The notes under the pieces are model-generated. The model made no database searches, was not told the origin of the DNA, and saw only the letters and a list, made by a program, of their open reading frames with translations. This document shows positions 6,728 through 63,754 of a stretch of 64,000 bases of DNA, one piece after another (position 1 is the first letter of the stretch; each line of letters begins with the position of its first letter). Origin of the DNA: an uncultured virus (IMG/VR IMGVR_UViG_3300030109_002585) (Duplodnaviria; Heunggongvirae; Uroviricota; Caudoviricetes). The position numbers and the translations under genes are program-made. The DNA lies in the IMG/VR virus record IMGVR_UViG_3300030109_002585; one strand, given 5' to 3'.

Positions 6728-7984
6728 ATGTATGAAGTCTTAACCGGAAAACAACGCTCTTTGGTTTTTCCAATTATGTGTAATGCTTTCGTTAAGATGG
6801 ATTATTCGGATAATGTACCAAATACAGGAGATTCTGCAACCTACGATGATGTAGCCTACGGGCTTTGGGCGCATGAGGGTTCATTTTCCTTTGAAGCATT
6901 AATCACTCCGTATGAAATTAATGGTAATAGTACACATCAAATCACAATTGACCACGCCGCTACCGCATTAGGAGTAGGTCAAAGCAGAAACGATAGCAAG
7001 AAAATAATGGCAGGGCTATTACAAGATACTTATGCTTTAGGCGATAGCGATGCTAATGACGAATCTGAAATGCAGAATGAAAGATACTTAACTAGAGCAA
7101 ATAGAATAACTCATGAAATGATGATTTTTAATAATGATAATTTCACAATATCTTTGCTTAATGCTACTACTCACACTCAAAATAATCCAGCAGAATATAA
7201 AATAAAAGCCACAGTTAAGATAGGAAGTACCACTAAAACAGTCACTTCTGATATTGTAATTAAGCCAAGTCAAGGACATGGGTTTAGATTTAATGGTACT
7301 AATGGAGCCGCCCTATTTAGTGGCTTCGATGATAAAGGAAGAGTAATGTACGCTAAAGTGGCTGAAGTACATAGTGGAGGTTCTAATGACAATATAGACA
7401 TAATTGTGGCTTCCGCTACTAATCCCTTATTTGCAACCCAAGAATTATTTATTAGGGGCGATATTGCAAATGAACCTGCTTTTGATACTGGAACATCTTT
7501 TATCTCTCTTGGGACTATACATTCGGTTGCTGGTACTGACATAGAGATGACTAGTCCAACGCCACAGATGAATGGGGGTACTGACCTATATATCCCAACA
7601 TACAAACATGCGGCCTACATAGACCAAATGTTTCATGTAGGTTGTGTTTTTAATAATAGAACTAAACAAATATCTTTGTATCTTAATGGAATTTTGATTA
7701 AATCCGATACTCACGGAGAAACTTCTGATTTTGTATTCTCTAAAACAGACACATATATAGGTTCTAATGGATTAAATGATACTTCGATTTCAGGAATAGA
7801 AGATAAATTAGGCGGCGGCACGGCTTCAGGACAAGATGCGGCTACAACATGTAAGCAATTTATGGGTGAATTTCATGAATTAGCCATTACTGGAAATACT
7901 TCAGAATTTTCTATGATAGACAATCTTATGCCTAACTTTAACGATACTCTGCTTTATTTACGATTTGAAGAGGTGGATTTATGA
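6728..7984 (+). CDS. Tail protein with a LamG/concanavalin-like domain
   Basis: FSFEALITP...FHVGCVFN...LYLNG...YIGS...FMGEFHEL pattern. Confidence 0.65.
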   Translation: MYEVLTGKQRSLVFPIMCNAFVKMDYSDNVPNTGDSATYDDVAYGLWAHEGSFSFEALITPYEINGNSTHQITIDHAATALGVGQSRNDSKKIMAGLLQDTYALGDSDANDESEMQNERYLTRANRITHEMMIFNNDNFTISLLNATTHTQNNPAEYKIKATVKIGSTTKTVTSDIVIKPSQGHGFRFNGTNGAALFSGFDDKGRVMYAKVAEVHSGGSNDNIDIIVASATNPLFATQELFIRGDIANEPAFDTGTSFISLGTIHSVAGTDIEMTSPTPQMNGGTDLYIPTYKHAAYIDQMFHVGCVFNNRTKQISLYLNGILIKSDTHGETSDFVFSKTDTYIGSNGLNDTSISGIEDKLGGGTASGQDAATTCKQFMGEFHELAITGNTSEFSMIDNLMPNFNDTLLYLRFEEVDL

Positions 7985-43219: not shown

Positions 43220-43401
43220 AGTCTTAGCCTCCTGATTGAAGTTTCGTATGCTTTGGAAGCATACATGCCTTGAGATACTAATTGTTTGAATATCTCAATT
43301 CTCTTTTCTTCTCTTCTAACTAGCCTTTGTAAAAACTTTGGCTTGTAAAATCTATGCTCACTGGCTGGTATCTTGTCTTTCATTCTCATTTGTATCACCA
43401 T
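43216..43401 (-). CDS. Small basic hypothetical protein
   Basis: 61-aa ORF. Confidence 0.4.
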   Translation of the reverse strand: MVIQMRMKDKIPASEHRFYKPKFLQRLVRREEKRIEIFKQLVSQGMYASKAYETSIRRLRL

Positions 43402-44269
43402 ATATTATATTTCGGCCTCTTATATCGGCCATTTTGCTATATCCAAGCATTTGAATTATTTTCTTACTAGTCTTTCCTATTGCGGAAAGAGAAATGCCTG
43501 TCGATTCAGATATGTCGGATTTATTAATCCCTGAATATCTAAATATGTTTACTGCTAACCAACATACACTTGCGTAGTATGCTCTTGGTTTATTGTAACA
43601 ATGAGACTCTGTTATAGGGTCTAGTTTTGTTAATAAATCAGTAGCGTTTGAATAAAACATTACATCATCTGTAATCTTATTACATGTTTGTTTCATCATG
43701 TATGATGGGTCAGCCCCGTATAGTACATTTTTATTCATGAAGTGATTAATCATCTTCTGCACTAATCTATTTACTATTTTAATAGAACATGAGTATTCAG
43801 AACATAAATCCTTTAGAGGAAGAGGGGTTCTATTTTCCTTTAGAACATAGTACACAGTAGCAGTACACCTTGCTTCTAAGCGGATATTACCGAACAGCCC
43901 TTTTCTTTGAGCCTGTAAATAGCATTCTTCCACTCTATCCTTCAAAGGATGATTGACTTGTATAGAAGATAATATCATATTACAAGTCTGTATTCCAGCA
44001 ACAATATGTCTAGGAGTCAGAGAGTTATTGCCCCTCTTATTGAATTTGGAAGAACCTGCTCCTGTTATTACTGAACCCAATTTACCATTATCGGCTGAAT
44101 GAGTCACTTCTCCATTATTCACAAACCTAACAGTCTCTTCAAACAATTCAGTAACTACGACTAAGCCGCAATCACTACATTCTGTTTCTCCCATTCTTTC
44201 ATTGTAATTAAATACTAAACTTCCACATTCACTGCATTTCATCCATATCAACCCTATACTCATTTTCAT
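43358..44269 (-). CDS. tfb: Transcription initiation factor TFIIB/TFB homolog
   Basis: CSECGS...GETECSDCGLV Zn ribbon followed by two cyclin-like repeats. Confidence 0.85.
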   Translation of the reverse strand: MKMSIGLIWMKCSECGSLVFNYNERMGETECSDCGLVVVTELFEETVRFVNNGEVTHSADNGKLGSVITGAGSSKFNKRGNNSLTPRHIVAGIQTCNMILSSIQVNHPLKDRVEECYLQAQRKGLFGNIRLEARCTATVYYVLKENRTPLPLKDLCSEYSCSIKIVNRLVQKMINHFMNKNVLYGADPSYMMKQTCNKITDDVMFYSNATDLLTKLDPITESHCYNKPRAYYASVCWLAVNIFRYSGINKSDISESTGISLSAIGKTSKKIIQMLGYSKMADIRGRNIIYGDTNENERQDTSQ

Positions 44270-47873: not shown

Positions 47874-48286
47874 CTAAATTTACTGGCTTTTGGTAATTCA
47901 AATAGAGTTGAAAAGGATTCAAGCCATTCACCTTTTTTACTAATTACCCACTCTTTTTCTTCTAAGAATTGCCATTCATCGAATTGATGAAAAGCATTTG
48001 GATTATCTTCTAATAGATTACTAATAGAAGTATATCGTTTATTATTGAATATGATTATACTTTGTCCACAAGCATAGAAAAGACCATGCTTACCACGGCC
48101 TAATACATAGCCATGAGGATAAAAGTCTGGCTTGAAACAAGCCATATTTTCTTTAATTACGGGTTCAGTTAACTGCCACCCATTAATATCAAACATTATT
48201 TTAAGCGCATCGGGAGACATAAAATGCTTCAGATTCATGATTACCACACTGCAAAAAGGGGAGAATAGTTTAGGTATAAAAAGCAA
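47867..48286 (-). CDS. Hypothetical protein
   Basis: ORF; likely start MNLKHF. Confidence 0.5.
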   Translation of the reverse strand: MLFIPKLFSPFCSVVIMNLKHFMSPDALKIMFDINGWQLTEPVIKENMACFKPDFYPHGYVLGRGKHGLFYACGQSIIIFNNKRYTSISNLLEDNPNAFHQFDEWQFLEEKEWVISKKGEWLESFSTLFELPKASKFRC

Positions 48287-48336
48287 AAACCTAAACCATT
48301 CCCCCCAACAGGAGCCTAGTTAAAACTGTATTTAGT

Positions 48337-54384: not shown

Positions 54385-54732
54385 TTATATTCCTCCATTT
54401 TAATTTGTGAGTAGGAGAGGGAAGGAGCAACGATACCAATAAAGACGGTATCAATACTTCTAATAGCCACTGTCGCTCAACTTCCCTCATTAATAACTAA
54501 TGCTTCATATTTAATCAATAATTACCCAATTATCGACATTACACCAATCATCAGTAGTAGGGGTCGCCGACCCTTTTATACCGCCGCCACTTCGGGCGAA
54601 GGTCGCATTTCAAGAAAACAATGTCCCACCAAAGGGCATTGTAAGAATAAAAAAGAGCCTCCACCACCGGCGAACCGATGATGAAGGCAAAAACCCGTTA
54701 GGGTGAAACTAATTACTTACTGAAAGGCTACT

Positions 54733-55215
54733 TCACTCTTCAGAAGAATCTTCACTAGACAATAGCGACTCAACGCTTCCATCCCATGTCTTTAGTTTAT
54801 ACATCTTAGAAAGACTGTTTCGTACTTTCTTAGATTGTGCTACTGCATAATGTTCAGCAGAGTCAAAGGTTCCGCCACCTGATTTAGCATGTTTTAGTGT
54901 TACTGCACTAATAATGCCATCGTGGTTATAGTACACTAAAGATGCTTCTTCAACAACACCGCAAATACGGTCAATTGCTACTCTTACACTTGCTGGTACT
55001 GCACTTCTTTGTCCTCTTCGACCCAAAGGTGAACCATCACGGCCCTTCAAAAGAGCCTTTAGCGCATTAGCCGCCGCTTCTCTTTCATTTGGGTTTTCTT
55101 GACCAACTTGAAGGTGCAACTCAACAACTTGCTTGAGTGCGCCATCTAGTGTTTGGTCTGCTTCTAGGTATTCATTAATCTCTATAACGAGACTGTCCCA
55201 TTTTACTTCATCCAT
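54733..55215 (-). CDS. Hypothetical protein, paralog family A
   Basis: Similar to 58946..59482 and 55981..56568 (G.R..VPA, HxKxGG, WDG). Confidence 0.65.
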   Translation of the reverse strand: MDEVKWDSLVIEINEYLEADQTLDGALKQVVELHLQVGQENPNEREAAANALKALLKGRDGSPLGRRGQRSAVPASVRVAIDRICGVVEEASLVYYNHDGIISAVTLKHAKSGGGTFDSAEHYAVAQSKKVRNSLSKMYKLKTWDGSVESLLSSEDSSEE

Positions 55216-55329
55216 ATTATCATATCTCTGCCCAGTTTGTCGGGCAAACTATCCATAGGTTAGCCATATATAAGGAGAGGGAAAGCAATTATTAGCCATT
55301 AAAATCCATTTTAAAATACGCTTAACTTT

Positions 55330-55700
55330 TTATTAACCGGATTATTTTCGGAGAAATGTTGATTATTTTCGGATTAAATATTATTCCACCGGAAAAAAGA
55401 GCGGAAAAATAATACATTGAGAAACTTCAGGGTAATGTTACACTACCCTTTAGTTTCTAATGGTCTAGACATTATTCCATTATTCCACTCCACAAAGGGG
55501 GGTCACTAACCAAGAGAGATAGATTAGCCCTTAGAAACTCAAGGGTAATGTAATACACTACCTAAGAGAAATGAGAGGGGGTGGTGAAGTAGTGTATGTA
55601 TGTAATGGAATAATGGAATAATGGAATGTAATTAATATCTTAGGGGTAGTGTTACACTACCCTCTAGTTTCTTCGATTCTTTTTCCAAACCACTGTGGAA
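55330..55700. repeat. Cluster of palindromes and iterated repeats (candidate origin, terminus or injection-stop signal)
   Basis: gggta(a/g)tgttacactaccc palindromes at about 55430 and 55644, an inverted copy at 55531-55553, and attattcc/ggaataat iterations. Confidence 0.65.
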
Positions 55701-55921
55701 ACTTCGGTGGAAACATCTTTTCCATTGTATATTATATTGTATATCATATTGATATTGAATACTATACCATAATTATACGGTCAATTGAAACACATAGTAA
55801 ATAATAGGGTATTAATATGGAGTGTATTTATTGATACCATTTAATCGCTCGATAACAGTATGTAGTTTGGTTGTAGTGGCTTTGATTAACGGAAACCCTA
55901 TCAAAAAAAAAAGGAAAAAAC

Positions 55922-55960
55922 CGATACTAGAGGACCAATGTAAGTCATCCTCTAGTATCG
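55922..55960. terminator. Hairpin with the conserved loop ccaatgtaagtca, copy 1
   Basis: 13-bp perfect stem flanked by A- and T-tracts. Confidence 0.7.
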
Positions 55961-55980
55961 AGTTTTTTTTCAGTAGTCAA

Positions 55981-56568
55981 TCAAGCCCTGTCATGTTCAT
56001 ACATGCCAATCATTCTAGGTGGTTGAATTGGGTGTCTGTCACCAATATATTTGATGCCCTCTTCTGTGCCATCCCAAATGCCTTCTCTAAGAGATGCAAT
56101 TAGCCTTCTCCTGAGTTTGGCGCAATGTCTGTCCAACCATCTATCAAAAAGAACAACTTCATGATTATCTTGGGTGTCAAAATCGTTCAATACTCGGCGA
56201 TTGACAATAAAAGGACAAAAGCCGACCAAAGGTAGCCATTGTCTCTCCCAATCTTCCATACTGAATCTAAACTGGTCAACTAATTTCTCAATGGTTGCTT
56301 CAATTTGGGCAGGGACAAGGTATCTCTGCCCGCCGGTCAAATACGCCGCTCCATTAATTCTAAGAATGTCCTTTAATGCGCTCCACTGTTTTTCAGCATG
56401 ATAGTCAATATAATTGTTAAAATCATCCTTTCTGTTTTGCAACCAATCAAACATAATACAAATTACTTGCATTACATCTTCTGGTACTTCAGGTTCTCTG
56501 CCCATCCATTCTCCTATTGCTTCTAATCTTCTTTCTAGGTTTTTTACCTTAACTCCGATACTATTCAC
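55981..56568 (-). CDS. Hypothetical protein, divergent paralog family A
   Basis: GTG start at 56568 preferred, downstream of the repeat/TATA; GGQRYLVPAQI...LREGIWDGT. Confidence 0.55.
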   Translation of the reverse strand: MNSIGVKVKNLERRLEAIGEWMGREPEVPEDVMQVICIMFDWLQNRKDDFNNYIDYHAEKQWSALKDILRINGAAYLTGGQRYLVPAQIEATIEKLVDQFRFSMEDWERQWLPLVGFCPFIVNRRVLNDFDTQDNHEVVLFDRWLDRHCAKLRRRLIASLREGIWDGTEEGIKYIGDRHPIQPPRMIGMYEHDRA

Positions 56569-56744
56569 CAATAATGACTTATTCCTTGGTTTATGTAGGG
56601 TACTCCAAAGTTCATACCATATGGTTGTAGTGTCCTTTGAATAACGGAATGCCCCATAAAAAAAGCGAGAAGCCGAAAATAGAAGGTAAAACAAAAAAAC
56701 CTTCTATTTTCGACCCCTCTAGAGGTGTTATGAGTATTTCCTCT

Positions 56745-57335
56745 TCAATAGTAGTGGGCTACCATATTGCGTAGGTTGAATGTCTTAATCATAATAGTTA
56801 AGACTTCCAGAGGGTCGAACCAATCTTCAACCTCTTTAACATCATTGTAGTTGTTACTGTATTGGTTGCAACCACATAATACCGTAATACTACCTACTTC
56901 ATCACCAAATTCATAGAATCTGATACTAAACATCATTTGGTCACCATTTCCAAGGCCATCCCACTCTCGTCTAGTGTGGTATGAAGTAATTGTTGCTTGA
57001 TATTGTTGAGATGTTGGTTTTCGTACTCCGTATTTAGTAACATAGCCATAAGAATCCCTTCTAATATCAACTAATAGGTGTGGGTGAATATAATCTAGCA
57101 AAGTGTGAATATCACTGCCAAAAGATGAATTCAAGTCCAACATACCTTCTCCTGTGTCGCATTCCCAGTCTTTACCATTGGAATCTTTAGTAAACTCATG
57201 TAGTCCAAATTCTGAACCTGTGGAGTATTCTTCCTGCAATTTTTCGATTTTATCTAGTAATTCTTGTTCTTGACCTCTAAAAACTGTTTTTACTTCTTTT
57301 AAGCCGTTTTTCTCTATTATTATTCCATTAACCAT
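56745..57335 (-). CDS. Hypothetical protein
   Basis: 196-aa ORF between repeat copies. Confidence 0.6.
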   Translation of the reverse strand: MVNGIIIEKNGLKEVKTVFRGQEQELLDKIEKLQEEYSTGSEFGLHEFTKDSNGKDWECDTGEGMLDLNSSFGSDIHTLLDYIHPHLLVDIRRDSYGYVTKYGVRKPTSQQYQATITSYHTRREWDGLGNGDQMMFSIRFYEFGDEVGSITVLCGCNQYSNNYNDVKEVEDWFDPLEVLTIMIKTFNLRNMVAHYY

Positions 57336-57510
57336 TGTTAATCCCTCTTATATTGTAAATTATAGGTGCTTTATCTAGGGTATGTCAAAGTAGCATACCA
57401 TATGGTTGCATCTTTGAATGTAACCCTAGTTTTTAAAAAAAAGAGAAAAATGCCGGTCTTTCCCGACTGTCACCTCTAGTCTAAGGGGCGAGGTTTACCC
57501 CATGTTTGCG

Positions 57511-57759
57511 TCATGATTCAGCAGTGTCCTGTTCTGCTGGGAGTGTTTCGTCTTCATCATCGCAAGCGTCTTTTAATTCTTTCCAATTGATGCAATTAAA
57601 ATCCATCATGTCAGTATAGAAACCAGTATAGCCAATGTCTTTAATTCCATGTAAAAAGACCGTTTCTATCGTTTCTTCGATATATTCAACATCGCTCACA
57701 GTTACGGGGTCAAACCAAAGGCTCACAAGCCAAGTTGCTCTATTTGTCCAGCCATTCAT
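57511..57759 (-). CDS. Hypothetical phage protein (NGWTNRATW type)
   Basis: 82-aa acidic ORF between repeat copies. Confidence 0.6.
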   Translation of the reverse strand: MNGWTNRATWLVSLWFDPVTVSDVEYIEETIETVFLHGIKDIGYTGFYTDMMDFNCINWKELKDACDDEDETLPAEQDTAES

Positions 57760-57874
57760 ATTATCACTTAATAATATTATAAAATTATGAATATATAGGG
57801 TACTCCAAAGAGCGTACCATATGGTAGTAGTCTTCTTTGTCTTTTGACTACTACCACATAAAAAAATAAAAAAA

Positions 57875-58335
57875 AGAGAAACGCCGCCTACTCCAACACT
57901 CGAATCACCGCTTCATCAGTTTCCCGCCAATTCGCCATGGCTCCTTGGACTCTGTTTACTTTTTGAAGACTTACAACGCATGTTTCGGCTTTGTCTCTCT
58001 ATGGTTTATTCCGGCTTACGCCATAGGAATGTAAAAGGTGTTGGACGGGCTATCTTTTGGATTCCCGCATTGTGAGTGGATTATCTTGTACCACTAAGTT
58101 TGAAAGTGCGCTATGGCATTTCATATATGAGGTCACAAACTACACAATCTATTCATTGACAGTCAATCAATGCCCTTTTGGGGAACATAGGTCAAGAGCC
58201 ACTATTCTAACTCATTTGAGCATCGAATAATGGTTAAACTCGCCACCACAGCGATTAGTGTATGCCTTACTCCCTTCCAAGAGCATTCGGCCACCAACTT
58301 ATCCCAAGAACCCGCTAAAGTCGCTTGAGACAATA
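57875..58335 (-). ncRNA. Candidate structured non-coding RNA (about 460 nt)
   Basis: No ORF of 60 aa or more; higher GC; several hairpins; TATA upstream and T-tract downstream on the minus strand. Confidence 0.45.
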
Positions 58336-58440
58336 ATAAGCACATAATACCCCTATATAGGGTCTTTCAAAGTTAATACCATATGGTTTGGTAGGTCACT
58401 TTGATGATGACCGGTACGAACCATAAAAAAAAAGAAAATA

Positions 58441-58477
58441 AATGATGCAGGGCCAATGTAAGTCACCCTGCATCATT
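58441..58477. terminator. Hairpin with the conserved loop ccaatgtaagtca, copy 2
   Basis: 12-bp perfect stem with a different sequence from copy 1. Confidence 0.7.
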
Positions 58478-58497
58478 TTTATGCCTAAATCTGAGAA

Positions 58498-58821
58498 TCA
58501 CTCAGAAACATGAATTGATTCAATAGTCAATCCGTGTTCTTTGACTTCATCTCTAAGCATGTGTACTGTTGCAACACCATTACCACGGATAGCACCTTTC
58601 ACAGTGGTCGCCGTTGTGATGTTTTGACAAGCAATCTCGATTATCTTATCTAACATGCGTTGCTGTGCTTTTTTCAGAGAAGTATATACTCCAATCTGCC
58701 TTGTCTGTTCCTTTCCTCTCCTATCAGTAAAGTTTCTGATTAGTCTGAAAACTCGGTTATTCTCTATCCTCACTTTTTCACCTATTAATGTGAATAATAC
58801 AGTATTAAATAGGGTACTCAA
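58498..58821 (-). CDS. Hypothetical protein (true start probably near 58780)
   Basis: ORF between repeat copies. Confidence 0.5.
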   Translation of the reverse strand: MSTLFNTVLFTLIGEKVRIENNRVFRLIRNFTDRRGKEQTRQIGVYTSLKKAQQRMLDKIIEIACQNITTATTVKGAIRGNGVATVHMLRDEVKEHGLTIESIHVSE

Positions 58822-58945
58822 AGTTCATACCATATGGTTGTAACTTTGTGCATTACGAAGTAACTTGACCCTATATAGGGGTATGTACCCCTAATAATTG
58901 CTTCAAAGGGATTGAAGTGGTATTAGGGGTTACTTAATACAGGAG

Positions 58946-59482
58946 ATGAAAAAAATGGACATGGAAAAATGGACTCAACGAAGCACAGATATTAGAGAAT
59001 GGCTCAAGCACAATGATGCTGGGGCTATGGCTACACTAATCGAACAAACCCTAGATGCGGGCGACAATTCTGACAACATGGAAGAATTAGACCGTTTTTG
59101 GGAGGCAGTAAGAGCAATATGCAAAACCTTACCAAACACACCTATCAAGCAGGGCCGTGGCTCAACACTAGCACCGGCAATTCAGGCGTGTGTGGATGGT
59201 GTAGTGAATCGCATACAAACTGCCTTTGCAGTAATTGGTGACTCTGACCTAATTTTGGAAGTTATGCTTCCACACGGAAAGACAGGCGGCGCATATGCCG
59301 ATATTGACGCTTTTGCAAACGATATGGCTACAAAAGCACAAAGGGTACTAAAGGCGGCATTGAAAGATGGCCGTTGGAATGGTACAATGACTGAAGATGG
59401 ACTAACCGGACTTACCCCGCCGGTCAAGCAAACTTCAGACAATGAAGAAAGTGACGAGGACTCAACGGAGGAATCGCACTGA
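58946..59482 (+). CDS. Hypothetical protein, paralog family A (opposite orientation)
   Basis: GGAG RBS; clear similarity to 54733..55215. Confidence 0.7.
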   Translation: MKKMDMEKWTQRSTDIREWLKHNDAGAMATLIEQTLDAGDNSDNMEELDRFWEAVRAICKTLPNTPIKQGRGSTLAPAIQACVDGVVNRIQTAFAVIGDSDLILEVMLPHGKTGGAYADIDAFANDMATKAQRVLKAALKDGRWNGTMTEDGLTGLTPPVKQTSDNEESDEDSTEESH

Positions 59483-59741
59483 TACTCACTTCAATCCCTT
59501 TGTAGCCACAATCAAACTCCAACGGCGATTTGCACGGATTGAAAAGTCAAGACAGTCGGACCGGCTCACTTGCGTGAAATGCAAATTAGGAGCAGGGTGG
59601 ATTGATGGAAAATACCTAACGGACCCATCAATCCACCTTGTAGCCACTTTTTTTATGAGGTTGTGTTCCCGATGGTGTTTCAAAGTACACACACAACCAT
59701 ATGGTATTGATTGCTTTGTGTCAATACCCCGTCAATAAAAA

Positions 59742-59782
59742 AAAATAATAGAGAGCCGATGTAAGTCACTCTCTATTATTTT
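59742..59782. terminator. Hairpin with the conserved loop ccgatgtaagtca, copy 3
   Basis: 14-bp perfect stem with a third distinct sequence. Confidence 0.7.
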
Positions 59783-59939
59783 CTTTATTTTGGACACCCA
59801 CTATGGCACTTTAGACGACCATGTTTCATCAGTTATCTTCAATACTATCTTCATGGAGATAACCTGATGAGTATTCGTTTCCCCGTCATTTTTCTGTACC
59901 AAACTATTCGGTCAGATTGTGCCACAGTGAGTGTGGAAT

Positions 59940-60155
59940 CTATTCATCCCATAAAGCGGCCCTGAAATGTTTTTCGCTGAATGTGTGGCTATCTTCCTTT
60001 AGCATAACGCACATCTCATCAATTAAGTCTTCATGGCGGATTAGGCCATCAGACATAGTAACATGATTGATTACTTTCACTAATGCGAGATAATGTCTTT
60101 TCTGAAACTTGCTCATTCTTCTTCCTCTCCTGATAGGTCCAAGTCCCGAATACAC
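59940..60155 (-). CDS. Hypothetical protein (likely start MSKFQK)
   Basis: Coupled to the upstream ORF. Confidence 0.5.
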   Translation of the reverse strand: MYSGLGPIRRGRRMSKFQKRHYLALVKVINHVTMSDGLIRHEDLIDEMCVMLKEDSHTFSEKHFRAALWDE

Positions 60156-60589
60156 AATACAGCCGCATGGCGGTATTTATCGAATGCGTCGTCATTATCG
60201 AATAGCGTTTCAGCCATTTTATCCAATGAAACTGATACTATCGGTTTTATGTCGTCATCCTTAACCTTAATCAAGTGAAGTTGTTTCTGTAACTTCAACA
60301 ATTTATTGACTCTGCCTCTAATCCATGCACGGTCAATCATTTTGTTTCCTGTGATACTAACTTCATCTATTTGGACGATTCCGACATCTTTTCCAAAATC
60401 AACATAATCAACGCATGTAATTGTTAATTTGTCAAGGCTCATAGTCCATTCAATATCAGTGCTTGTATCTCTTTCATTCCACATGCTAACCATTGTGTTA
60501 GTATCTGTGAATTGATATACCATTTGTTTCTTGATAGTGCCGTCATTATACACCGTATCTCCGTAGGTCGTTGTTATATCCATATTCAT
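60113..60589 (-). CDS. Hypothetical protein
   Basis: 158 aa; GGAG RBS; downstream of repeat copy 7. Confidence 0.6.
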   Translation of the reverse strand: MNMDITTTYGDTVYNDGTIKKQMVYQFTDTNTMVSMWNERDTSTDIEWTMSLDKLTITCVDYVDFGKDVGIVQIDEVSITGNKMIDRAWIRGRVNKLLKLQKQLHLIKVKDDDIKPIVSVSLDKMAETLFDNDDAFDKYRHAAVLCIRDLDLSGEEEE

Positions 60590-61384
60590 TAACTCCTTTG
60601 AATAATAGCAATATTACTCTCTTTATAGGGTTGCACAAAGTAGCAACCATATGGTACTATTATGAGATATTGTTGTCTATATAGATGGGGTATATGAGCA
60701 TTGTTTTCTTTTAGAATGAAATGTTTCTATAATAAAACATAACACTTTAATTGAGTTGAAGGGATTATTTAGGTGATTTTCGCTTAAACTAAAACTCACC
60801 TATATATTTACAAATTTATCTATATAGTACCACATAGCATTATACAACCATATGGCTTTGTCCAAATTTTTAATATTGCTATATCAGTCTTATAATGCCA
60901 ACATTACATCATTAATTCATTAATATGAGCATTTGAAGGTTAATTATCTCGCCATTATACCGGCATACTTATACCATAAACAGGACTCGCTTAATACGGG
61001 ATTGATTGTGACTGATGCGGATGATGTATCTAAACTATTAAAAGACATAGTTGATGCTATTACACCAATACTTTCGGATATTAAATCTAATACTAAATCA
61101 GCATTGAATATACAAGTAAGTCAGGCAAATAAGGTTAAATTAAAAGAAATAGCAAAGAAACTTGAATCATTAAAGAGCAAGATTATACCATTATATCATT
61201 TAGATTATAAATCAGGTTCAACTACACAAACTTCATTAAATATAAAATAACATTAAATCATTAAGATTTTATTCTGGGAATACATAAGTTAATTAAAAAA
61301 GGCTGACGCTAGTGCCAAAAAAATTCCGCCACAATTTTTCAAAAACAAATTCTATTTTAAGCAATTAACAGGAAAAGGGTTATT

Positions 61385-61654
61385 ATGACATGGAAAGATG
61401 AGATTAGAAAAGACGATGAAGAAGATAGAAAGTATAAGATAATTGCACCTCTATTAGAAAAGTTAGAACAATATATAGAAGATAATAACTTAGACCAAGT
61501 ATCGTCTATTAAGAAAGCCTTTGACGAGTTAGAATTTGAATTAATGTCTGATATTGGATATACCGGCAAATATGAAAATGAAGGCGATACTCCTATGGAA
61601 GACGCTATGTATCGTGAAAGAGAAGCACAAGGCGATAGATATTCAATGATGTGA
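61385..61654 (+). CDS. MxW-motif hypothetical protein
   Basis: Starts MTWKDEIRK. Confidence 0.6.
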   Translation: MTWKDEIRKDDEEDRKYKIIAPLLEKLEQYIEDNNLDQVSSIKKAFDELEFELMSDIGYTGKYENEGDTPMEDAMYREREAQGDRYSMM

Positions 61655-61659
61655 TTGAT

Positions 61660-61917
61660 ATGACATGGAAAGATAAAATACAGAAAAAAATGCCTAAAGG
61701 AGAATTATTGGGCGGTATGGGTATGAGAATTACTGTTGATTCTCTTACCGCAAAAGAACGACTTTACAAAAGAATAAAAAGTGACGAAGCACAAACTTTG
61801 GCTGATTTTTTACAAGAGGCTAGAATTACCGCATTAGAACTAATGAGTAAAATTAATGATGCAAATAAATATTATGAAGAAAATAAAGATGCGCTTGATA
61901 GAAAAAAAGGCGATTGA
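61660..61917 (+). CDS. MxW-motif hypothetical protein
   Basis: Starts MTWKDKIQK. Confidence 0.6.
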   Translation: MTWKDKIQKKMPKGELLGGMGMRITVDSLTAKERLYKRIKSDEAQTLADFLQEARITALELMSKINDANKYYEENKDALDRKKGD

Positions 61918-61918
61918 T

Positions 61919-62086
61919 ATGACACGCTGTAATTACTTAGAAGACTGGTTCGATAATGAATCTGCTAAATTGGACAAAGTTGAAAATGACTATGGTAAGT
62001 GTTTAGTTACAGGTCAAAAGAAAAAGGCTACTACTTTAACTAAGGCTCAAGCATGGGCTAAAGTGTTTAGGAGGAATAAAGAATGA
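61919..62086 (+). CDS. Small hypothetical protein
   Basis: Likely start MTRCNYLEDW. Confidence 0.45.
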   Translation: MTRCNYLEDWFDNESAKLDKVENDYGKCLVTGQKKKATTLTKAQAWAKVFRRNKE

Positions 62087-63457: not shown

Positions 63458-63754
63458 ATGAGTTGGAAGGATTCACTAAAGAAGTATCGAACCAATGTAA
63501 GTGGTTCCGGTGCGGTCCCTTTACAAGATGTTCAGAAAGACCATAAAGAATTAAGTCTGAAACTTAGAGGAATTATGGGTGCAGTTGGTAGTCTTAGAAA
63601 TAATATGCCACGAAGCGTTAGTAAAGTAATGGCTAAGTTAGATGAAATCAAAGAAGAAATATATAAAACAGAACAATTACTTGATTCTATGACTGAAGAA
63701 TATGACAGTATAGATAGAGATAATTGGGACAAGACAATGGAGGATTTACAATGA
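63458..63754 (+). CDS. MxW-motif coiled-coil protein
   Basis: Starts MSWKDSLKK. Confidence 0.6.
   Translation: MSWKDSLKKYRTNVSGSGAVPLQDVQKDHKELSLKLRGIMGAVGSLRNNMPRSVSKVMAKLDEIKEEIYKTEQLLDSMTEEYDSIDRDNWDKTMEDLQ

Follow-up and report, generated by a model that had tools for sequence, protein, structure and literature searches.

What kind of element keeps a long loop fixed while the stem that presents it is free to change? This question is raised by three hairpins in a 64,000-nucleotide (nt) stretch of DNA from an uncultured virus of the Caudoviricetes (IMG/VR record IMGVR_UViG_3300030109_002585), hereafter called the window. A reading of positions 55800-59900 combined with an inverted-repeat scan confirmed three perfect hairpins at 55922-55960, 58440-58478 and 59742-59782, with stems of 13, 13 and 14 base pairs (bp) and one 13-nt loop in common, CCRATGTAAGTCA (UGACUUACAUYGG on the minus strand). 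The original prediction, which had described three perfect 12-14 bp hairpins with a single loop, is thus borne out, with the extent of hairpin 2 now set at 58440-58478. With moderate confidence, we regard the hairpins as 3'-end or terminator elements within promoter-gene-terminator cassettes, whose loop is a putative recognition site for one trans-acting factor. We hold, about equally firmly, that they belong to a small family of 3'-end elements found in a single subclade of the magroviruses, abundant viruses whose assigned hosts are uncultured marine archaea of the Poseidoniales, and that they occupy a hypervariable cassette block at ~55.9-60.7 kb.

All three hairpins are oriented along the minus strand. 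Hairpin 1 pairs positions 55922-55934 with 55948-55960 (stem CGATACTAGAGGA; fold z-score -7.4) and hairpin 2 pairs 58440-58452 with 58466-58478 (stem AAATGATGCAGGG; z -4.9), and their loops at 55935-55947 and 58453-58465 both read CCAATGTAAGTCA on the plus strand and UGACUUACAUUGG on the minus strand. Hairpin 3 has arms at 59742-59755 and 59769-59782 (stem AAAATAATAGAGAG; z -6.1) and a loop at 59756-59768 that reads CCGATGTAAGTCA on the plus and UGACUUACAUCGG on the minus strand. Folded as RNA, both strands gave predicted energies of -22.7 to -27.8 kcal/mol and z-scores of -4.9 to -7.4, and none of 200 shuffles was equally stable. A search for the loop pattern with up to one mismatch returned three matches in the whole window, all of them the hairpin loops; shuffled sequences (n=100) held 0.19 matches on average, and one of the hundred gave three. 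The stems, which had been described as unrelated, do differ in sequence, but not entirely: hairpins 2 and 3 have 9 of 13 stem letters in common, and at the four loop-proximal pairs the 5' arm carries a purine in every copy.

The same loop recurs on other stems in relatives. In total, the family comprises 15 instances, corresponding to 11 distinct sequences and 8 distinct stems, from the window, two IMG/VR contigs and ten metagenome contigs. Its members were found via the loop, with no filter for perfect stems, and a search tolerating G-T pairs and a mismatch gave the same set. Across a 12-pair helix in the 11 distinct sequences, every one of the 132 cells is paired, always as a Watson-Crick pair and never as G-U, and pairing drops to 34-58% when the 3' partner is slid by one to three columns. 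Compensatory, two-sided changes occur at all 12 pairs, and none of 500 shuffles matched the observed values. Orthologous hairpin pairs differ by single compensatory swaps, namely AATAGAGAG to AATAGAAAG between the window and the related locus L237, ATGATGCAGGG to ATGGTGCAGGG in L318, and TGATGCAGGG to TGATGGAGGG in L233. The loop is invariant at 11 of its 13 positions, and its variants are described by UGACUUA(C/A)AU(U/C)GG. In an unbiased screen of all perfect hairpins with at least seven pairs in ~1.5 Mb of related loci, it was the sole loop of more than 6 nt present on four or more distinct stems. Evolution has thus preserved the structure and the loop but not the letters of the stem, as expected of the combined structure-plus-sequence element that the original prediction had proposed.

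The placement of the hairpins is polar. A run of 6-10 T lies within ~20 nt on the 3' side of the hairpin on the UGACUUACAUYGG strand in all 15 instances, separated from the stem by a spacer of 3-6 nt in several copies; on the opposite strand, three of the 11 distinct sequences lack a T run, and the other eight carry a run of A on the 5' side. The hairpin starts 12-21 nt past a stop codon in 12 of the 15 instances and 159-163 nt past it in two orthologues of hairpin 3, and one truncated contig does not allow a judgement. The proteins encoded upstream fall into seven groups without BLASTP similarity to each other, none of them with a Pfam or PHROG function. Downstream, a promoter dyad, CCATATGG, follows at a distance of 30-53 nt in 12 cases, and a decayed relic of it is found in the other three. 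The hairpin can travel with its upstream gene, as seen in the window, L314, L317, L318 and L321, or with its downstream promoter: hairpin 2 of L237 has the stem and the dyad region of the window's hairpin 2 behind a different gene. It is from the polarity of the T run and the link to stop codons that we infer an action at the level of RNA.

Might these hairpins simply be what any terminator looks like in such viruses? The window and 56 related loci (L234-L289) hold 106 distinct ordinary elements with similar placement, each consisting of a G-rich hairpin and a T run, mostly with tetraloops such as TTCG; to judge by sequence, these viruses, although assigned to archaeal hosts, use terminators built like those of bacteria. 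Their commonest loop is 4 nt long (51 of 106) and exceeds 12 nt in two cases, as compared to 13 nt throughout the loop family. G-U pairs make up 188 of their 1517 pairs (12.4%) versus 0 of 132 cells, and perfect stems are found in six of them versus all family members. The argument that a plain terminator would not need a conserved loop is strengthened by this comparison and by the screen above, in which no other loop of more than 6 nt recurred on four or more stems. Bacterial intrinsic (Rho-independent) terminators resemble the loop hairpins, as far as sequence and predicted folds can tell, in closing a unit, just past the stop codon, with a stable hairpin and a U tract, and in being G-rich in the 5' arm and C-rich in the 3' arm on the loop side. 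They differ in their loop of ~4 nt, as opposed to 13 conserved nt here, in the lack of G-U pairs here, in the 3-6 nt that often part the stem from the T run here, and in the host, which is inferred to be archaeal here. Two further long terminator-like hairpins were noticed in the window, a perfect 14-bp palindrome at 56674-56712 (minus-strand loop UUUUUUGUUUU) and a hairpin with G-U pairs at 48258-48306 (minus-strand loop UUUUGCUUUUUAU); both loops are U-rich and measure 11-13 nt.

How might the loop hairpins act? We envision a scenario whereby each minus-strand transcript would end with a long perfect hairpin followed by 6-10 U. The U run would be the archaeal termination signal, and the hairpin would remain at the RNA 3' end, where it might block read-through as well as 3'-to-5' decay. 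Antisense transcripts from the adjacent palindromic promoter could be stopped by the hairpins as well; such two-way insulation is suggested by the perfect palindromy of most copies, which have an A run opposite, and by the palindromic nature of the neighbouring promoter itself. The 13-nt loop and the four purine/pyrimidine pairs beside it would then be where one trans-acting factor docks in a sequence-specific manner; this factor, most likely an RNA-binding protein encoded by the virus, would treat unrelated transcripts as one group. A structural stem with an invariant loop is the signature of a loop-reading protein in the iron-responsive element, lambda boxB and the MS2 operator, which have loops of 4-7 nt. 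The logic is alike, but the loop family is not known to resemble these elements in sequence or structure.

Several observations weigh against this scenario. No candidate for a loop-binding protein emerged, and neither Pfam nor PHROG assigns a function to the cassette proteins. The family is narrow: among the four closest relatives that cover the region (helicase identity 84-87%), it is present in L278 and L237 but absent from L235 and L236, and it is missing from all more distant magroviruses searched, so that the expected conservation of the loop in related viruses holds for some of them and fails for others. A covariance model built from the 11 sequences (R1) recovered its own members at 65-77 bits, and a search of 1.5 Mb of related loci added no diverged one; the covariance-model check that the original prediction had put forward, run on these loci, thus returned the known set and nothing beyond it. 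The next matches, at 30 bits or less, were ordinary terminators with G-rich stems, the best of them (30 bits) belonging to another magrovirus. An RNA that is read on one strand only would not normally lack G-U pairs altogether, and the perfect symmetry of the two strands is the chief feature for which such a one-strand model offers no explanation. Contigs assembled from four marine metatranscriptome runs of two studies cover none of the three hairpins, and are uninformative either way as to whether these are transcribed. Finally, studied archaea terminate at U tracts and require no hairpin, according to a published account (PMC8716108), and the hairpin may thus not belong to termination itself.

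Alternatively, the element might operate on DNA. The palindrome could extrude as a single-stranded hairpin or cruciform during replication or transcription, and a viral protein of replication or recombination could then use its loop as a priming, nicking or cassette-exchange site, by analogy with single-strand origins, HUH Rep origins and integron attC sites; we consider this unlikely. The exclusively Watson-Crick pairing (132 of 132 cells), set against the 12.4% of G-U pairs and the 6 of 106 perfect stems in ordinary terminators, would be expected of a DNA-level palindrome or of an element read on both strands. Moreover, the hairpins are found where cassettes meet that are reordered, replaced or inverted in close relatives (L278, L237, L235 and L236, with synteny broken at ~55.9-60.6 kb); homology with L278 ends at 55918 and with L237 at 55915, just short of hairpin 1, and between the window and L322, which have the same downstream flank, genes and stems differ while the loop is identical. 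The region also lies at the minimum of the cumulative GC skew and at a switch in gene orientation, but as the two coincide, the skew provides no independent evidence for an origin. On the other hand, the polar T run (15 of 15 on one strand) and the tie to stop codons are what would be expected of a transcript element. A loop of 13 nt is unfavourable for cruciform extrusion. Had copies with unlike stems been joined by crossovers within the loop, their arms would no longer match; all 11 distinct copies are free of mismatches, which argues against exchange of this kind. Integron attC sites are likewise hairpins at cassette ends that are read as single-stranded DNA; they carry conserved boxes at the stem base, and extrahelical bases, but no conserved loop, unlike the perfect stems with freely varying base found here. 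HUH Rep origins come closer in presenting an invariant loop, the Rep nonanucleotide, on variable stems, again as single-stranded DNA, but this motif is not evident in the family loop. Neither an integrase, a transposase nor an HUH nuclease or Rep domain was detected among the 84 open reading frames (ORFs) scanned in the window, with ~30 kb of the genome lying outside it.

The same lack of G-U pairs would be needed if both strands folded as RNA, and it is conceivable that the exactly complementary sense and antisense loops of different copies kiss in trans and thereby couple the fate of cassette mRNAs, much as loop-loop contacts act in antisense control of plasmids (CopA/CopT, FinP/traJ). Both strands indeed fold stably (z down to -7.4), the A run on the 5' side of 8 of the 11 distinct copies provides a T run for the opposite strand, and the TATA-like element CCCTATATAGGG is palindromic; a weak Rfam row over hairpin 2 even names FinP, but it is not significant. 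We nevertheless judge this possibility very unlikely. The remaining three distinct copies lack an opposite-strand T run, no plus-strand transcript through a hairpin was seen in the RNA contigs, which reach none of the three, and the one trans partner examined, an 8-nt complement in an abundant RNA described below, is not kept in L237, L314, L317 or L321. A further alternative dispenses with a reader altogether: the hairpins would be ordinary terminators, the loop a patch of homology left by recent duplication or recombination of cassette joints, and the stems would have been re-perfected by quasi-palindrome template switching. That the family is young and narrow fits this explanation, and so do the cassette architecture and its shuffling, which recall the promoter-early stem-loop (PeSL) cassettes of T4-type phages, as well as a crossover in phage RB49 that was mapped inside the loop of a stem-loop (Arbiol et al., 2010, PMC2839356). 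However, the stems have diverged at all 12 positions, whereas 11 of 13 loop letters are fixed across the 11 sequences, a pattern seen across viruses with a helicase DNA identity of only ~83-85%. Neutral drift that replaced the stems should have altered the loop too, and template switching repairs stems but does not protect loops; we regard the explanation without a reader as rather improbable.

The PeSL cassettes merit a closer comparison. They likewise are small orphan genes in a hyperplastic region, flanked by composite joints of a stem-loop terminator and a promoter, with units gained, lost and reordered among relatives, and one stem arm is G-rich and the other C-rich (Arbiol et al., 2010, PMC2839356). 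Their host is bacterial and their promoters are of the sigma-70 type, and no invariant long loop on variable stems is reported for them (PMC2839356). A repeated composite of stem-loop and promoter, and the shuffling of units, are found in the magrovirus block as well. It combines a TATA-like promoter and the CCATATGG dyad with a perfect palindrome and a fixed 13-mer loop; its gene content resembles that of archaeal viruses, a TATA-like element precedes an RNA start by ~27 nt, and sigma-70-like sites are not enriched (53 found versus 54.9 expected).

A free stem and a fixed 13-nt loop behind seven unrelated genes point to a sequence-specific reader, and the loop offers a short bait with which it might be retrieved. 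The abundance of hairpins with T runs in viruses whose presumed hosts would terminate at U tracts alone is relevant to the way in which archaeal viruses finish and protect their transcripts. A bolder idea, which we deem decidedly improbable, is that clade-specific hairpin loops, here a 13-mer on perfect palindromes, are address tags of magrovirus cassettes, read on single-stranded nucleic acid by a dedicated viral protein that co-regulates or mobilises accessory-gene cassettes. Such tags would amount to an integron-like or regulon-like system of archaeal viruses without a known recombinase or binding protein. Given the narrow family and the uncultured host, we rate the importance of the element as moderate rather than broad.

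How far does the family extend? A helicase search yielded 79 related loci, mainly on contigs of ~90-96 kb. Searched for the loop with up to three substitutions on at least seven pairs, with G-T pairs and one mismatch allowed, these loci gave loop hairpins on a 93.8-kb contig (L278, L232, L233) and in L237; a further row in L238, with eight pairs and three loop changes, is probably due to chance. Larger collections were scanned with the closing pair and the loop variant fixed, so that rarer forms may have escaped. Two 14-mer scans of viral contigs hit at least 226 loci, and among the matches listed, two have the loop between inverted repeats, both on the same 93.8-kb contig. In metagenomes, the commonest form matched 15 times, and 11 of these matches fold into hairpins of 12-20 perfect pairs; when one genome was taken from each of 185,579 species, it matched eight times, all in bacteria and none as a hairpin. 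The nearest virus record compared (G001, 25.6 kb) contains no copy. In keeping with the expectation that the loop would not belong to a known terminator family, Rfam returned no match at gathering thresholds over the whole window, and at an E-value limit of 10 it produced for 55800-59900 chance-level rows only, all far below the gathering score; the FinP row over hairpin 2 was the best of those at this hairpin, with 23.1 bits against a gathering score of 45.

Readings in terms of known RNA motifs did not hold up. The loop can close to the 7-nt loop CUUACAU on the minus strand, but mimicry of an anticodon arm is not supported, as the closing A-U pair is lost when loop position 11 is C and is underlain by a G-G mismatch. 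Inspection by eye against the consensus motifs led us to dismiss the K-loop (L7Ae-type) and C/D box as well. Elsewhere in the window, at 63489-63507 on the minus strand, a 6-bp hairpin with the same 7-nt loop (GAACCA-CUUACAU-UGGUUC), within a plus-strand ORF, has 11 letters in common with the family loop (ACTTACATTGG), possibly by chance.

The virus itself is, by its gene content, a magrovirus-like archaeal tailed virus, and its host assignment rests on that content too. ORFs of the window (~35% G+C, no tRNA genes) encode a thermosome-type chaperonin, a split family B DNA polymerase, an ATP-dependent DNA ligase, an RFC-like clamp loader and an XPF/ERCC4 nuclease, as well as a class II ribonucleotide reductase, ThiF and JAB domains, a UvrD helicase and a phage tail tube protein. 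The virus shares this gene set with the magroviruses, tailed viruses whose assigned hosts are marine group II (Poseidoniales) archaea (PMC5434244). A word search of three magrovirus papers (PMC5434244, PMC11706807, PMC10160649) met no mention of promoters, terminators, hairpins or palindromes, and BLASTN of 54500-62000 against GenBank phages gave no match. A 303-aa protein encoded at 43358-44269 (minus strand) has a weak match to the TFIIB zinc ribbon (23 bits; cut-off 29) and may be a virus-encoded TFB-like transcription factor.

Within the cassette block, ~55.9-60.7 kb is a row of small single-gene units. Half-sites of the dyad CAAAG-N-ACCATATGGT-N-CTTTG match 13 times versus 0.02 expected, all within 56606-60654, and beside each dyad is the TATA-like element CCCTATATAGGG, with the dyad ~36-39 nt upstream of it. 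RNA contigs from two runs start at 58900, ~27 nt past the TATA-like CTATATAG, a spacing that fits an archaeal promoter. On the plus strand, runs of 9-10 A adjoin the left side of each hairpin, corresponding to T runs on the minus strand. Hairpin 1 follows a gene for a 197-aa protein without Pfam or PHROG match (55981..56574, minus strand), whose stop codon lies 21 nt before it; its T tract, T6 CC T10 at 55903..55920, is located 3' of the hairpin on the minus strand, and a decayed dyad relic is found near 55862-55890. Hairpin 2 is preceded, at 20 nt, by the stop codon of a small protein gene (58498..58821, minus strand), homologues of which (91-102 aa) are found ahead of the same hairpin in L314, L317, L318 and L321; its minus-strand T tract, ATTTTC T9, occupies 58425..58439 on the 3' side, followed downstream by a dyad at 58368..58403 and the TATA-like CCCTATATAGGG at 58343-58356. 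Hairpin 3 lies behind a minus-strand unit at 59940..60589 (ORFs 60113-60589 and 59940-60116), which has 87% DNA identity with L237, where the arrangement is identical. Its T9 tract on the minus strand covers 59737..59745, the first four letters belonging to the stem, and a dyad copy is located downstream at 59681..59718. The described placing of each hairpin beside a T tract and a dyad at the end of a minus-strand unit therefore stands for the tract and the dyad, but hairpin 3 is removed by 159 nt from the nearest minus-strand stop.

Directly downstream of hairpin 2, the dyad/TATA promoter at 58343-58403 probably drives an abundant structured viral non-coding RNA of ~300-370 nt. The stretch 57952-58322 (minus strand) has no reading frame, and RNA contigs cover it at depths of 359, 138 and 110 in three runs from both studies, as compared to 2-14 in neighbouring genes. 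It is conserved at 86-89% in L237 (7030-7355), L314 (1610-1940), L317 (1085-1410) and L321 (5-330), and at ~70% in L235 and L236 (near 7020-7390). Its consensus fold is accompanied by compensatory changes in 28 of 73 predicted pairs, and it has no match to an Rfam family. In the window, L237, L314, L317 and L321, the loop hairpin is positioned directly upstream of the promoter of this RNA. Pairing between the loop and this RNA was considered and rejected: UGUAAGUC at 57966-57973 complements eight loop letters, but the homologues in L237, L314, L317 and L321 lack it, and the region around it is not conserved.

A second type of hairpin with a 13-nt loop was noticed at 57822-57856 and, in the reverse complement of L278, at 12961, 14367 and 15622. 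Its stem, of 9-11 bp and covarying, starts in the right half of CCATATGG, its loop contains the CTTTG of the dyad, and an A run follows on the plus strand.

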